Shown here in pieces: positions 1,959-52,931 of a stretch of DNA of 64,000 bases. How positions within the stretch are numbered: position 1 is the first letter of the stretch; each line of letters begins with the position of its first letter. Source of the stretch: Patescibacteria group bacterium (GTDB lineage Bacteria > Patescibacteriota > UBA1384 > DATEAH01); assembly GCA_035288465.1 (NCBI GenBank), contig DATEAH010000005.1, positions 67,636 through 131,635 of the forward strand, read 5' to 3'. The notes beneath the pieces are model-generated. The model made no database searches, had not been told where the DNA came from, and saw only the letters and a program-made list of their open reading frames with translations. A program made the position numbers and the translations under genes.

Positions 1959-2978
1959 TTAGATGCCGAGGATTAGTTTGGCTTGATTAATAAGATCTTG
2001 AGTTAGTGATATTGGCTTGAGTTGATATGCTTTCTCGAGATTGCCGAGAGCTTCCTTGATCATTGCCTTATCTTGAGTTAAAACTCCGAGTCGAAATTGT
2101 GAACGACCATATCTCATATAGATATCGGGTGTTTTTTTATAATTTTCAACATAAGATTTACAGTAAACATTTATCAATTGGTATCGAGAAATATTATATT
2201 TATTGAAGCTTTCTTCGAGGTCTTTTAAGTGTTGTTTGATACTATCAGGTACCCCTACGAAGGGATCCCAATTAAAAGTTTTTTCTTCTTGAATATATAA
2301 TTCATCTGCTTCCATGCTTATTTCAAGAAACCATATATTAATAAGACACCCTATTACTGTTAAATCTTGTGGATCTGATATCTTAGAAAATTGTTGTTTA
2401 AATGATGCGAATGCCTCAGATCCAACATCTCGATAACTAGTAAGCTTAGCTTCATCTAGCTTGCGTTGACAAGCGACACAAAGAGAAATCATCTTTACAA
2501 CTTCTGTAGTCTCTTTGGGGTGAGAGAAAACTCCTTCATCTATAATTATTTTTTCGGTTGCAGCTGAATCAGCAAGATATTGTTGGCTAAAGTCTGGATC
2601 TTTAGAGAATAAAAAAGACTTGGCATCCCAGACTTCATTTTTTTCATTATTGGCCAAATATATCGACGCAGAAAGAGTATAAGCCATTACTTTTTTTCCT
2701 AAAGCATTAGAAATTTTCGCCGACCATCTTATTAATTCAAAATCTTCATTGAATTCTATATCATTTTCTTTGTCTTCTTTCTCTAAAATATTTAACATAT
2801 TTACGGCATCTATATATTTCCCTTCATCAAAATATCCCTTCATAAGAGCTAGTGAAATAATTCTGGACATTTCGTAATCTGATACTACAAACTTATCTTC
2901 GGCATAAATTATGTTGGAGAATACTAATATTAATAGGACAAAGAGTGCGAGGAAAATGCTGCGTGGCGCTTGTTTCAC
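1959..2978 (-). CDS. secreted hypothetical protein (signal peptide)
   Basis: 339 aa; N-terminal hydrophobic signal MKQAPRSIFLALFVLLILVFSNIIYA; gaggtga RBS. Confidence 0.6.
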   Translation of the reverse strand: MKQAPRSIFLALFVLLILVFSNIIYAEDKFVVSDYEMSRIISLALMKGYFDEGKYIDAVNMLNILEKEDKENDIEFNEDFELIRWSAKISNALGKKVMAYTLSASIYLANNEKNEVWDAKSFLFSKDPDFSQQYLADSAATEKIIIDEGVFSHPKETTEVVKMISLCVACQRKLDEAKLTSYRDVGSEAFASFKQQFSKISDPQDLTVIGCLINIWFLEISMEADELYIQEEKTFNWDPFVGVPDSIKQHLKDLEESFNKYNISRYQLINVYCKSYVENYKKTPDIYMRYGRSQFRLGVLTQDKAMIKEALGNLEKAYQLKPISLTQDLINQAKLILGI

Positions 2979-5417: not shown

Positions 5418-7238
5418 ATGGAATTAAGAAATATTGCAATTATTGCCCATGTTGATCACGGCAAAACGACTTTGGTTGACGGGCTCTTAAAACAATCGAA
5501 CACCTTTCGAGATAATGAGGCAGAAATGTCTCAGGATTTAATTATGGACTCAAATGATCAAGAAAGGGAACGCGGGATTACCATTTTAGCTAAAAATACG
5601 GCGGTGCATTACAAAGATGTCAAAATCAATATTATTGATACACCCGGACATGCTGATTTTGGTGGTGAAGTGGAACGCACTTTGAATATGGCAGACGGGG
5701 CGATTTTGCTAATTGATGCCCAGGAAGGACCGATGCCCCAGACCAAATTTGTTCTCAAAAAAGCTTTGGAAATTGGCTTAAAATTAATTGTGGTAATTAA
5801 TAAAATCGACAAGCGCGATGTCCAAGTGGCAAACACCCTTAATAAAACTTATGATTTATTTTTAGATCTGGCGACTCATGAATCTCAACTGGATTTTCCG
5901 GTTTATTTTTGTATTAGCCGTGAAGGCAAAGCTTGGGATGAATTGCCCCAGGATTGCCAAGAAGCGGCGGATTTGACGCCAATTTTTAAAGCAATTCTAA
6001 AATATATCCCAGCTCCTGATACAGATAGCAATAAACCTTTCCAAATGCAGGTGACTAATTTGGATTGGGATAATTTTCAAGGCAAATATGCGGTTGGTAG
6101 AATTACGAATGGTAAAACTGAGGAAAAACTCGCGGTTTCAATTGTAAATTCCGAGGGGGTTTTAGGAACTGCTCGGATTGAAAAAATTTATGTCAACCAG
6201 GGCTTAAAAAAAGTTGAAGTAAAAAAGGCGGAGGCTGGCAATATTGTGGCTATTACCGGAATACCGAATGCTAATATCGGCGACACGATTGCGGATTCTA
6301 AAAATCCAATCGCCCTGCCGCCAATTAAAATCGAAGAGCCAACTTTGAAAATGGCGATTTCGGCTAACACCTCGCCTTTTGCCGGTCTGGAAGGCGAATT
6401 TGTGACCAGCCGTCAAATTTTAGAACGAATTAAAAAAGAGCTGCAAACCAATATTTCCTTAAAGCTCGAAGAAAATGGGACCGAATTTATTTTGTCTGGC
6501 CGCGGAGAATTACATTTGTCGGTTTTTATCGAAACTTTACGGCGTGAAGGTTTTGAACTTCAAGTGAAAAAACCACAGGTTATCACCAAAGGAATTGACG
6601 GCACAATCTCGGAACCGGTTGAAGAATTAACGATCGATGTTGATTGCGATAAAATTGGGGTTGTTAAAGCCGAAGTTGGTAAAAGAAAAGGTATTTTACT
6701 TTCTCATGACCAAAACAGTGATGGGACAACCCGTTTGGTGTACGAAATTACCACCAGAGGTTTATTGGGCTTGAGAAACCAGTTGCTGAGAATTACTCGC
6801 GGCACGGCAACTTTGAATTCGATTTTTCTTCGTTTTCAGCCTGCTGGCGCTGAGCTGCCGAAACTTCGAAACGGGGTTTTGATTGCTTCGGCTGGCGGAA
6901 AGGCGGTTGCATATGGAATAAATATCGCACAAGGTCGCGGCATGACCATAATTGAACCTAATGCCCAAGTATACGCGGGACAAATTATTGGTTTAAATAA
7001 TCGTGGCGAAGATCTTGAAATTAATGTCACCAAAGAAAAACAAAAAACCAATATTCGTTCTTCGACTTCTGATATCGCGGTTATTTTAACCCCGCCAACC
7101 CTTTTGTCGCTCGAACAATGTTTGGATTTTTTGGAAAACGATGAATTTTTGGAAGTAACACCGAAGAATTTGCGGCTTCGAAAAATAATTTTAGACGCAG
7201 TATCGCGCGCAAAAGCCAAAAAAGTGAACTCAAATTAA
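5418..7238 (+). CDS. typA: translational GTPase TypA/BipA
   Basis: 606 aa; [13 protein letters not shown]1 motif, [13 protein letters not shown]; full-length BipA architecture. Confidence 0.95.
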
Positions 7239-7797: not shown

Positions 7798-7990
7798 TGG
7801 CTGAGCCATTTTTCGTGGCTCCGGGACAGGGATTCGAAGGGCTAAAGCCCGTCTCAACGCAGTCGTGGTATTTTTATTTCACGATTTGTGTAATAATTTC
7901 AGCATAAATAATTTTGTGGTTTGCGCAACGGGGTTCTCGCCAGATCACGGACAACTCAAAATCTTCCTATAAAACTGAAAAATTTTGAGT
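7798..7990 (-). mobile_element. putative miniature tRNA-linked element A (between tRNA-Gln and peroxiredoxin gene)
   Basis: Contains terminator-like hairpin, gaacccNNNgcg block, AT-rich block, conserved hairpin gggctttagccc (7839-7850) and a 23-nt duplicate of the tRNA-Gln 3' end (7816-7838). Confidence 0.4.
7816..7838 (-). repeat. duplicate of tRNA-Gln 3' end (T-loop to CCA), 1 mismatch
   Basis: ttcgaatccctgtcccggagcca vs tRNA tccgaatccctatcccggagcca at 7991-8013; lacks T-stem 5' strand so not a tRNA. Confidence 0.85.
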
Positions 7991-8064
7991 TGGCTCCGGG
8001 ATAGGGATTCGGACCCCAATTTTCAGGACCAAAACCTGACGTCCTGCCATTAGACGATCCCGGA
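7991..8064 (-). tRNA. tRNA-Gln (anticodon TTG), CCA encoded
   Basis: Hand-folded cloverleaf: acceptor tccggga/tcccgga, D-stem gtct/ggac, anticodon stem tcagg/cctga, loop ttTTGgt, T-arm tgggg-tccgaat-cccta. Confidence 0.85.
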
Positions 8065-8187: not shown

Positions 8188-9108
8188 ATGAATGGACCAG
8201 AAATATTTTCGGAATCAAATGGAGAACATGATCACAACGAATTTTCTAATATTCCAATAGACCCAGAAATTTCAGAGGAAAATACTAAAGCCCGAGAACT
8301 TACAAGTTTAACGATAGACTTTTTGCATAATGCTCACATTTCTAAAGAAAAAAGAGGTAATCCAGAGCTACAAGATGCAACTTTAATGAGATTATTCCAA
8401 GACCAGTCCTGGCGTCTCAGAGTTAATAAAGCAACCCAGAAAGCAGATCAAGAGTGGCAAAAGACAGCCAAAACTTTTACAGTCGCGAGAGAGTTGTCGC
8501 GAGAAGCACCCTTTGTTACTCCGTCGTTTGCTTGTCCTTCGCCATTTGTTGAATTGTTAGCTGATTATGATCAGGGCTTAGAAATTGCTAAACTTAAAGA
8601 AAATTCACCATTGGAAAGTTGGCTAGAAGCTTATATTCGCGAAAGACCGGTTAAATTTTATAATCCTTCTCATAGTCTTGCATCTCCTGATCTTATTGCA
8701 CTTAGACGTGAAGGAAAATCGGCAGTAATAGTTGCCGTTGGCGAAGCGAAAAGAGGTTATCTCGGTGTCGGGGAAAGACCTTCTCAATCTAGGGATCGCA
8801 GAGAGGGATTGCCACAATTTAGAAAAATACTTAGAGATCTCCCTAAAAGAGTTAAACTTCTCAATTCTAATCTTTCTTCCATGAGAGAAAAAAGGCCATT
8901 TCTAAAAGAAATTGATGAATTTGCGGTTGCAGGTTTAACCGAATTGAAAAAATATTTAATAGTCCCATTTGATGTCGCTACTCCTCGTGAAGACATGAAA
9001 ATTCGAGGTCTTGAGCCTTGGGAAAGAGATGAAATGAGTTTTTCACGCCAAGAATTGGCTTACCTTTCATTGTTATTAGTGCGTCAATCAAAAATAAAAA
9101 AACAATAA
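8188..9108 (+). CDS. hypothetical protein (cargo of the segment bounded by rnpB 3' end repeats)
   Basis: 306 aa; strong aggagg RBS; no recombinase or other recognizable motifs. Confidence 0.6.
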   Translation: MNGPEIFSESNGEHDHNEFSNIPIDPEISEENTKARELTSLTIDFLHNAHISKEKRGNPELQDATLMRLFQDQSWRLRVNKATQKADQEWQKTAKTFTVARELSREAPFVTPSFACPSPFVELLADYDQGLEIAKLKENSPLESWLEAYIRERPVKFYNPSHSLASPDLIALRREGKSAVIVAVGEAKRGYLGVGERPSQSRDRREGLPQFRKILRDLPKRVKLLNSNLSSMREKRPFLKEIDEFAVAGLTELKKYLIVPFDVATPREDMKIRGLEPWERDEMSFSRQELAYLSLLLVRQSKIKKQ

Positions 9109-25094: not shown

Positions 25095-25166
25095 GGGCCT
25101 GTAGCTCAGTGGTAGAGCATCTGCCTCTTAAGCAGAGTGTCGAGGGTTCGATCCCCTCCAGGCCCT
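25095..25166 (+). tRNA. tRNA-Lys (anticodon CTT)
   Basis: acceptor gggcctg/caggccc, anticodon stem tctgc/gcaga, loop ctCTTaa, T-arm gaggg-ttcgatc-ccctc. Confidence 0.85.
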
Positions 25167-25259
25167 TTTCCGGAAAGAAAACTCTTTTGAGGTTTTTTTC
25201 GGAAAATGGCTTGTGGTGGTAAGAACCCACAGGCGATAAATAAACAATTGAGTAAAAAG

Positions 25260-25288
25260 TTGATATTTTAGCAAAGACTTAATATAAA
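25260..25288 (+). promoter_or_regulatory. sigma70-like promoter TTGATA-17-TATAAA inside element C
   Basis: ttgatattttagcaaagacttaatataaa; 30-nt block nearly identical to element B (47338-47366). Confidence 0.45.
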
Positions 25289-25323
25289 TCAAAATGTTGT
25301 TGCATCGGGACGGGGTTTACCCC

Positions 25324-25343
25324 TTCGATCCCCTCCAGGCCCT
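25324..25343 (+). repeat. exact duplicate of tRNA-Lys 3' end (T-loop to discriminator)
   Basis: ttcgatcccctccaggccct identical to 25147-25166. Confidence 0.9.
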
Positions 25344-27345: not shown

Positions 27346-27491
27346 ATATTACCCTATAAAATTTTCTATCGTAACGATTAGAGGGCGGGATTGTGGGGAT
27401 CGACCCCACAAAAAAAGGCGAAAACCTACTGACAATTCAAATAGGCTTTCGCCAAAAATAACAAATGAAAATAAATCAAATAAACTCAAAG

Positions 27492-47282: not shown

Positions 47283-47450
47283 AGTGGGTAACGAGAGTCG
47301 AAGGGCTGAAGCCCGTCTCAACGCAATTGAATTAAAATTTATTTAATGTTTTTGCTAAAATATCACGTTGATTTTAATAAGTGACTAACGCTTCGGGTTC
47401 GACACACTTACTTATTTCTTTTTGCCGTTTTTAGACGGTACAAAGAAATA
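47283..47450 (-). mobile_element. putative miniature tRNA-linked element B (downstream of tRNA-Trp, upstream of vanX-like gene)
   Basis: Terminator-like hairpin, gaacccgaagcg block, promoter-like block, conserved hairpin gggcttcagccc, 20-nt duplicate of tRNA-Trp 3' end (47283-47302, 2 mismatches). Confidence 0.4.
47338..47366 (-). promoter_or_regulatory. sigma70-like promoter GTGATA-17-AATAAA inside element B
   Basis: Minus-strand gtgatattttagcaaaaacattaaataaa; would transcribe hairpin + tRNA-end copy + vanX-like gene. Confidence 0.4.
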
Positions 47451-47522
47451 AGCGGGTAACGGGAGTCGAACCCGTGTCTTCAGCTTGGAAAGCTGACATA
47501 ATAACCACTATACGATACCCGC
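47451..47522 (-). tRNA. tRNA-Trp (anticodon CCA), no encoded CCA end
   Basis: acceptor gcgggta/tacccgc, anticodon stem cagct/agctg, loop ttCCAag, T-arm acggg-ttcgact-cccgt. Confidence 0.85.
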
Positions 47523-52872: not shown

Positions 52873-52931
52873 CAATTTAAAAAGCGGGATACCGGGATCG
52901 AACTGGCGCCTCCACCTTACCTGCCCGCCAT
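52873..52931 (-). repeat. degenerate tandem copy of tRNA-Gly 3' half immediately downstream of tRNA-Gly
   Basis: gtggaggcgccagttcgatcccggtatcccgct vs tRNA-Gly aagaggtcgccggttcgaatccggtctaccgct; preceded by GGCGCC palindrome; cannot fold into full cloverleaf. Confidence 0.7.

Follow-up and report, generated by a model that had tools for sequence, protein, structure and literature searches.

What is a conserved hairpin doing directly beside a detached copy of a tRNA 3' end? The question arises from a 64,000-nt stretch of DNA, analysed here as a whole and referred to as the window, which is chromosomal DNA of a Patescibacteria MAG; it contains RNase P RNA and a TypA that matches an entry for a ‘Patescibacteria group bacterium’ at 100% identity and proteins of Candidatus Nealsonbacteria at ~80%. 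According to the original prediction, a hairpin with a common core occurs here in three copies, each abutting position T54 of a tRNA 3' strand, a compensatory change in its stem implies selection on structure, and the hairpin is neither a known terminator nor an att arm.

Architecture of the three tRNA loci

The pattern GACGGGSTTYASCCCTTCGA has exactly three matches in the window, in line with the prediction, and none across 100 shuffles; the motif consensus is GAC-GGGS-TTYA-SCCC-TTCGA, of which zero chance occurrences are expected in the window. The hairpin does abut T54 of a tRNA 3' copy in all three loci: each motif copy adjoins a duplicate of the 3' end of its own tRNA, from T54 to the end of the gene, this end being the encoded CCA in the case of Gln and N73 in the other two. 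When tRNA identities were assigned with ARAGORN and the Rfam tRNA model, the names of the Gln and Lys copies stood and the copy that had been ascribed to tRNA-Trp turned out to belong to tRNA-Gly(TCC). Such a downstream 3' copy accompanies 3 of the 11 tRNAs in the window. The copies had been treated as free-standing. They are located 148–157 nt downstream of the cognate intact tRNA (157 nt for Lys), and therefore mark the right end of a small insertion, so that each is the right direct repeat of a unit of ~150 bp.

Alignment from the tRNA end to the copy revealed one block plan common to all three loci (Table 1). A terminator-like hairpin (block B, 32–38 nt) is followed by an inverted copy of the tRNA 3' end (C, 30 nt), an AT-rich promoter-like block (D, 63–66 nt) and a hairpin module of 23 nt (E-F), with the displaced tRNA end (G) beyond it; no ORF lies within the 148–157-bp intervals. 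Conservation differs strongly from block to block, pairwise identities among the three loci being 38–47% in B, 51–56% in C, 56–64% in D and 74–96% in E-F. The last value is the highest of all, which makes the hairpin module the conserved end of the insertion. Its consensus is TGCGTTGAGAC-GGGS-TTYA-SCCC, and it is G+C-rich in a genome of 37% G+C. At the Lys locus the conserved module begins at 25301, so the start that had been proposed for it, 25298, was 2–3 nt early.

The direct repeats that flank the insertions measure 23 bp at the Gln locus (91% identity), 20 bp at the Lys locus (100%) and 20 bp at the Gly locus (90%), and their start-to-start spacings are 175, 177 and 168 nt. All four differences between repeat copies are transitions. 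Those of the Gly copy weaken the pairing with the tRNA 5' strand, producing a G52.U62 wobble and a C2.A71 mismatch, which identifies the downstream repeat copy as the non-functional one. The tRNA-Gln gene itself has an unusual T-loop, TCCGAAT, with C at position 55, as against the canonical TTCGAAT of its downstream copy; tRNA-Pro(CGG) of a related contig (GCA_041642995.1) likewise combines a T-loop of this kind, TCCGATT, with a downstream 3' copy.

Block C, which went unmentioned in the original prediction, repeats the tRNA 3' end imperfectly and in inverted orientation. It terminates in GAACCC, and at the Gly locus its GTCGAACCCG is the exact reverse complement of CGGGTTCGAC in tRNA-Gly. Owing to this block, tRNA-end sequence is present three times per locus, in the order direct-inverted-direct. 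At each of the three loci the tRNA 3' end, the trailer (B) and block C together fold as a long hairpin; the energies are -45.4 (Lys), -35.5 and -32.4 kcal/mol, the z-scores -5.3 (Lys), -7.0 and -3.9, and none of 200 shuffles was equally stable. Of the 11 window tRNAs, these three alone show extensive base pairing between 3' end and trailer together with a significant z, the other eight being without it. The own C block fits far better than those of the other loci for Lys (-45.4 against -33) and Gly, but not for Gln.

Table 1. Location of the features at the three loci and of related elements; positions refer to the window unless another contig is named
Locus	Feature	Position (strand)	Remarks
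Lys	Intact tRNA-Lys(CTT)	25095..25166 (+)	Found by ARAGORN and Rfam
Lys	Left direct repeat	25147-25166 (+)	Last 20 nt of tRNA-Lys(CTT)
Lys	Block B	25167..25204 (+)	Terminator-like trailer hairpin from the tRNA end; sequence not conserved between loci
Lys	Block C	25205..25234 (+)	tRNA-Lys 3' end, copied imperfectly and inverted (…GAACCC)
Lys	Block D	25235..25300 (+)	AT-rich; contains conserved TGATATTTTAGCAAA
Lys	Extended -10 promoter-like site in D	25275..25261 (-)	TTTGCTAAAATATCA; toward tRNA, antisense
Lys	Block E-F	25301..25323 (+)	Conserved terminal module, TGCATCGGGAC-GGGG-TTTA-CCCC
Lys	Core hairpin	25312-25323	
Lys	Extended bulged stem	25304-25329	
Lys	Match to GACGGGSTTYASCCCTTCGA	25309..25328 (+)	
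Lys	Block G	25324..25343 (+)	Displaced tRNA-Lys T54-N73, 20/20 identical; right direct repeat
Lys	Blocks E-F and G together	25301-25343 (+)	TGCATCGGGAC-GGGG-TTTA-CCCC-TTCGATCCCCTCCAGGCCCT
Gln	Intact tRNA-Gln(TTG)	7991..8064 (-)	Encoded CCA; T-loop TCCGAAT
Gln	Insertion, blocks B to D	7862..7990 (-)	B 7955-7990, C 7925-7954, D 7862-7924
Gln	Extended -10 promoter-like site in D	7885-7901 (+)	Variant TTTGTGTAATAATTTCA; toward tRNA, antisense
Gln	Block E-F	7839..7861 (-)	TGCGTTGAGAC-GGGC-TTTA-GCCC
Gln	Extended stem	7858..7833	
Gln	Match to GACGGGSTTYASCCCTTCGA	7853..7834 (-)	
Gln	Block G	7816..7838 (-)	tRNA-Gln T54-to-CCA copy of 23 nt; differs from the gene by 2 transitions
Gly	Intact tRNA-Gly(TCC)	47451..47522 (-)	Anticodon loop TTTCCAA
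Gly	Insertion, blocks B to D	47326..47450 (-)	B 47419-47450, C 47389-47418, D 47326-47388
Gly	Extended -10 promoter-like site in D	47351-47365 (+)	TTTGCTAAAATATCA; toward tRNA, antisense
Gly	Block E-F	47303..47325 (-)	TGCGTTGAGAC-GGGC-TTCA-GCCC
Gly	Extended stem	47322..47297	
Gly	Match to GACGGGSTTYASCCCTTCGA	47317..47298 (-)	
Gly	Block G	47283..47302 (-)	tRNA-Gly T54-N73 copy, 20 nt, 2 transitions relative to the gene
	215-aa Y1_Tnp (IS200-like/RAYT-type HUH) gene	L044 20226-20873	~8 kb outside the window, to its left
	Top-strand oligonucleotide		TTGAGACGGGCTTTAGCCCTTCGAAT; candidate recombinase or Y1/RAYT substrate

Pairing and folding of the terminal hairpin

The fourth stem pair is, as had been noticed, C-G in the Gln and Gly copies and G-C in the Lys copy. 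The 4-bp stem that had been described is present, and a longer one was missed: RNAalifold lengthens it to 10 bp with a bulge, (G/A)TTGAG-AC-GGGS-TTYA-SCCC-TTCGA(N). Here the bases (G/A)TTGAG of the element (with TCGGG for TTGAG in the Lys copy) pair with TTCGA(N) of the tRNA copy, and AC is bulged out; the partners of the element thus include the five bases with which the copied T-loop begins. Standard pairs fill 29 of the 30 pair cells of this stem, as compared with 40–63% when the 3' partners are slid by 1–3 columns. All five substitutions in paired columns that are specific to the Lys copy retain pairing. Besides the change from C-G to G-C, they comprise two one-sided changes that the original prediction did not contain, U.G to C-G and A-U to G.U, and a change from G to A opposite base 59 of the T-loop, a T in Lys. 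The presence of G.U pairs makes the stem specific to the tRNA-sense strand.

In a simulation, six random substitutions left all 10 pairs intact in 2.7% of trials (p ~0.027), for an extended stem that was chosen from the same three sequences after the data had been seen. The covariation signal is weak, as 54 of 500 column shuffles match the observed score of the three sequences. Folding energies are ordinary over stretches of 47–50 nt (z = +0.27, +1.07 and -1.48), and the hairpin is the minimum-energy fold of the Gly copy alone; for Gln and Lys, that fold pairs GGG with the T-stem CCC. The compensatory change does preserve the hairpin, and constraint on it is plausible, but one such pair among three related copies does not establish the selection that had been implied. 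The whole pattern, seen in three copies only, is suggestive of selection on stem structure, and templated correction of a quasi-palindrome could yield the same pairing without function.

Promoter-like sites, neighbouring genes and searches for relatives

The conserved part of block D is an extended -10 promoter-like site (TGCTAAAAT) on the strand opposite to the tRNA. The sense strand of the Lys block D carries a weaker TTGATA-17-TATAAA, ~10 nt upstream of E-F. A similar TGCTATAAT lies upstream of real tRNA-Arg/Lys genes, and TGCTAAAAT is also found upstream of a tRNA-like sequence in a relative. No intrinsic terminator was called at E-F in any of the three loci, the stem being followed by TTCGA and not by a T run, so this part of the original prediction held. 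With Rfam 15, the gathering score is passed in the window by tRNAs and RNase P alone, and none of the families matched at E <= 10 is common to the three loci. We rejected a conserved small ORF spanning E-F-G on account of an in-frame stop in the Gly copy, and a primer-binding site or retro-copy of a mature tRNA on account of the missing CCA in the Lys and Gly copies. A locus-specific inverted duplication was dismissed as the source of block D, which is common to the loci.

We have scanned 30 ORFs of the window, including all of ~250 aa or more, for Pfam domains. They are either housekeeping genes or without a Pfam match, and no integrase, transposase, cas-like, tnpB-like or iscB-like gene was found among them. 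Genes in the same direction start 17–50 nt past the copy at the Gln locus (AhpC) and the Gly locus (M15 peptidase); the Lys locus has no same-direction gene downstream. Divergent from tRNA-Gln is a 306-aa ORF (8188-9108, plus strand), which has no Pfam domain and matched only itself among 5.8 billion proteins. The Y1_Tnp gene outside the window (Table 1) is flanked by inverted GGGGGACGGTTCTC repeats, one upstream and two downstream. These repeats are unrelated to the insertion and not dispersed in the window, and a tie between the two was rejected. A Y1_Tnp gene of 215 aa is also encoded in the relative with the 80%-identical TypA (L068/L069, ~21260).

The strict motif has no match in viral contigs. 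Among 185,579 species genomes (one per species) the loose motif has 30 matches, all of them due to chance and lying inside coding regions of high-G+C genomes; metagenome contigs yielded one identical Gln locus of the same organism and one chance match. An nhmmer profile and the covariance model R1 recovered the known copies only from the window and ~300 kb of fetched loci, and blastn against phage and plasmid records detected no relative of the insertion. A search for attP with exact tRNA 3' ends in viral contigs gave no match for Gln and none for Lys, and the matches to the Gly 3' end proved to be complete phage tRNA-Gly genes and not att sites. Altogether, neither a full-length relative nor an attP was found in the viral, genome and metagenome collections or in the phage and plasmid records. 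Population contigs showed no variation and no insert-free allele at the Gln locus (n=10) or the Gly locus (n=4). The contigs of relatives around homologues of TypA (84% and 80% identical) and of the M15 peptidase (72–76% identical) are not syntenic at the tRNA loci.

Proposed integration and alternative readings

We propose, with a probability of about 0.4, that the insertions represent a fossil or miniature tRNA-gene-targeting integrative element and that the hairpin is the element-side arm of an attR-like junction. The hairpin is read in this way because the layout is the signature of integration into tRNA genes and because gene-less att remnants are known. The exclusion of an att arm was the weak point of the original prediction, as the hairpin occupies the position of an attR-type arm. 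Integration into a tRNA gene would leave behind a regenerated tRNA, the element DNA and a displaced copy of the segment from T54 to the 3' end; the hairpin would adjoin T54 because this is where element DNA (the ‘P arm’) would join the displaced target fragment. The junction stem, possibly together with the inverted tRNA-end copy, would represent past or present recombinase recognition architecture, and the conservation of E-F would reflect the requirements of mobility. Observed at the loci are the repeats, the pattern of pairing, the common arrangement of blocks and the different degrees to which the blocks are conserved; recombination as the origin of the insertions, and the part of the hairpin in it, we infer. 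The three copies are most likely immobile fossils now.

What defines tRNA-integrated elements is a regenerated tRNA accompanied by a displaced 3' fragment, and about half of those catalogued have their crossover in the T-stem region (PMC4383910). As in these genomic islands and prophages with tyrosine-integrase att sites (Islander), an intact, regenerated tRNA is followed at all three loci by a cognate fragment in the same orientation, which runs from T54 in the T-loop to the 3' end and abuts element DNA (PMC4383910). The islands span kilobases and carry an integrase, whereas the insertions of 148–157 bp contain no gene and no ORF; unlike the islands, related inserts reside at three different tRNAs, and the half-site at the T-loop is a hairpin instead of a mirror of the T-stem. 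CIMEs, cis-mobilizable elements that arose by decay of ICEs or IMEs and have kept attL and attR but lost their genes (PMC5704250), offer a further parallel, since here, too, att-like direct repeats flank an interval with no genes between them, including those for integration and transfer. CIMEs are, however, irregular and usually of kilobase size, and the compact plan of constant size in our loci suggests a defined unit.

Several points speak against integration. No recombinase gene is found nearby (30 scanned window ORFs), the left end in block B has no sequence conservation, and the GCCC/CCCC beside the T-loop is no inverted repeat of the T-stem 3' strand, unlike in a classical core site. 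Each of the three related elements would need an attP matching its own tRNA, the collections contain no relative or attP, and the 10 + 4 population contigs show no presence/absence polymorphism. The hairpin is predicted to be thermodynamically unexceptional. To our knowledge, 148–157 bp is far below the size of any described integrative element, and it is very small for a double-stranded circle. The tiny constant size, one conserved end, the three tRNAs, the inverted copy and the lack of a recombinase or a full-length relative do not fit a routine remnant, and leave room for readings in which the hairpin functions as RNA, is a quasi-palindrome, ends a single-strand transposon or belongs to a strand that folds.

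If the hairpin acted as an RNA element, transcripts from an internal promoter would start a few bases upstream of TTGCGTTGAGAC, and the 5' structure would stabilise the downstream message or sequester the orphan tRNA 3' fragment, keeping it from interfering with tRNA processing. The stem depends on G.U pairs and hence exists on the tRNA-sense strand only, a TTGATA-17-TATAAA-like site is at hand on that strand ~10 nt upstream of the module, and the AhpC and M15 peptidase genes, 17–50 nt downstream and in the same direction, would be severed from their upstream promoters by the terminator-like hairpin of the insertion. However, the promoter scan did not call the sense site, and the extended -10 on the opposite strand fits better; the Lys locus has no same-direction gene downstream, yet shows pair-preserving changes in its hairpin; and there is neither an Rfam match nor, in two of the three copies, a minimum-energy RNA fold that corresponds to the hairpin. 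We consider an RNA role rather unlikely. It is likewise doubtful that the hairpin is a functionless quasi-palindrome, left at a rearrangement junction, for example by fold-back repair or as a decayed T-arm whose loop has been shortened, in which the paired change arose through templated intra-strand correction or by chance. Against such a relic, conservation in the E-F module far exceeds that of the remaining blocks, the module has stayed G+C-rich despite the AT-rich genome, and two more one-sided changes retain pairing (p ~0.03). In its favour are the small number of copies, just three, the 54 of 500 shuffles that reach the covariation score and folding z-scores near zero, as well as the resemblance of TTGAGAC-GGG to a variable loop plus T-stem 5' strand (tRNA-Gly GAAGACACGGG, tRNA-Asp TTGAGATC) and the occurrence of other tRNA-derived debris in this genome and in a relative, in one case with a hairpin in place of a single strand of a tRNA stem.

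Under single-strand transposition, the insertion would be the end of a derivative of an HUH/Y1 transposon of the IS200/IS605 type, with a subterminal hairpin whose 5'-flanking guide bases TTGAG pair with a cleavage or target pentanucleotide TTCGA in the T-loop. The layout of guide, hairpin and target and the strand specificity agree with this, the insertion has a hairpin close to either end, in blocks B and F, and a RAYT-like Y1_Tnp gene is located ~8 kb past the left end of the window, with another in a relative. Against this, the IS200/IS605 family makes no target duplication, in contrast to the repeats of 20–23 bp found here; the hairpin at the left end is not conserved, the GGGGGACGGTTCTC repeats of the Y1 gene are unrelated and not dispersed in the window, and insertion 3' of TTCGA would split the tRNA. 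We regard an origin of this kind as improbable; assignment to an IS200/IS605 element or PATE was rejected because the left hairpins are 38–47% identical, the repeats measure 20–23 bp and the left flanks differ. MITEs and IS200/IS605-derived PATEs do resemble the insertions in their size of ~150 bp, AT-rich core, near-end hairpins, non-coding nature and presence in several copies per genome. They create a short fixed target duplication, or none, unlike the repeats described here, which are bounded by tRNA landmarks, and unlike the insertions, in which one end only is conserved. A MITE was rejected, as the sole inverted pair, block C versus block G, is tRNA-specific and imperfect and the repeats are 20–23 bp long. 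Very improbable is a guide-RNA-like unit made up of E-F and the tRNA copy, with an AT-rich promoter leader, a 23-nt hairpin handle and a tRNA-matching spacer of 20–23 nt, for which the homing guides of CRISPR-associated transposons, which also match tRNAs, provide a comparison. It is the format alone that fits: a handle with a 4-bp stem and a 4-nt loop directly precedes a target-matching segment of 20–23 nt, and one conserved handle is followed by three different ‘spacers’. The scanned ORFs include no cas, tnpB or iscB-like gene, no repeat array exists, the target is only ~150 nt away, and the ‘spacer’ ends exactly at the end of the tRNA gene, as an att-type repeat would. A CRISPR repeat-spacer unit proper was rejected, with a single unit per locus and no cas/tnpB domains in the 30 scanned ORFs.

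Att sites that recombine as a folded single strand are known from the integron attC and the CTX-phi attP(+) hairpin. Like these, the insertions have an imperfect inverted copy of the target within the element near the junction, by which one strand may mimic the target duplex; in both cases the fold is confined to one strand, and integration is open to units of very small size. No core of the IntI/Xer type was recognised here, unlike in attC and CTX-phi, and the base before TT is C, as opposed to G in attC R'. The unit of ~170 nt, which consists of the tRNA 3' piece, the trailer hairpin, the inverted tRNA-end copy, the AT-rich block and the E-F hairpin, might be a complete gene-less mobile element that integrates as a folded single strand with the help of a host recombinase acting in trans. 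We consider this distinctly unlikely. The long imperfect hairpin would then mimic the target tRNA gene at its duplex 3' end, the terminal stem would pair with the universal TTCGA of the T-loop, and the tRNA would be regenerated upon insertion, which would amount to a CTX-phi/attC-like mechanism operating at tRNA genes in the ultra-small genomes of Patescibacteria.

Tentatively, and in keeping with integration as the preferred reading, the insertion is best filed as a miniature form of tRNA-gene-targeting integrative DNA. If the three copies are fossils of ordinary integrative elements, they are of interest for annotation only, as a lineage-specific repeat that comes with orphan tRNA 3' fragments in a Patescibacteria genome, and would escape tools for which an integrase gene between the repeats is a requirement. 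If the ~150-bp unit were itself mobile, no smaller element that targets tRNA genes and regenerates them would be known, and the unit would bear both on the way in which a recombinase could be steered to many tRNA genes via the universal T-loop and on the persistence of mobile DNA in genomes nearly without mobile-element genes. The order of the tRNA-end copies, direct-inverted-direct, offers a concrete feature that can be tested.

Other tRNA-derived sequences were found in this genome and in those of its relatives. One relative has four tRNAs without downstream 3' copies. In another, on the GCA_041642995.1 contig (L047), the last 17 bases of tRNA-Pro(CGG) (1975-2047, minus strand) are copied 80 nt downstream (1880-1900); no hairpin abuts this copy, and a decayed tRNA-like fragment is located between gene and copy. 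The same contig holds the 5' part of a pseudo-tRNA-Lys (5456-5520, plus strand), in which a TCCGCCGGCTGGCGGA hairpin replaces the 5' strand of the anticodon stem; it lies ~85 nt upstream of an intact tRNA-Lys(TTT), within which the contig ends. In the window, a 46-nt pseudo-tRNA-Gly (52883-52928, minus strand) between tRNA-Gly(CCC) and tRNA-Thr(CGT) has kept its acceptor strands and T-arm, with the D and anticodon arms deleted, and a T-arm-like hairpin, GTGGGGATCGACCCCAC (27393-27409, plus strand), is situated ~85 nt 3' of tRNA-Leu(TAG), past the terminator of that gene.
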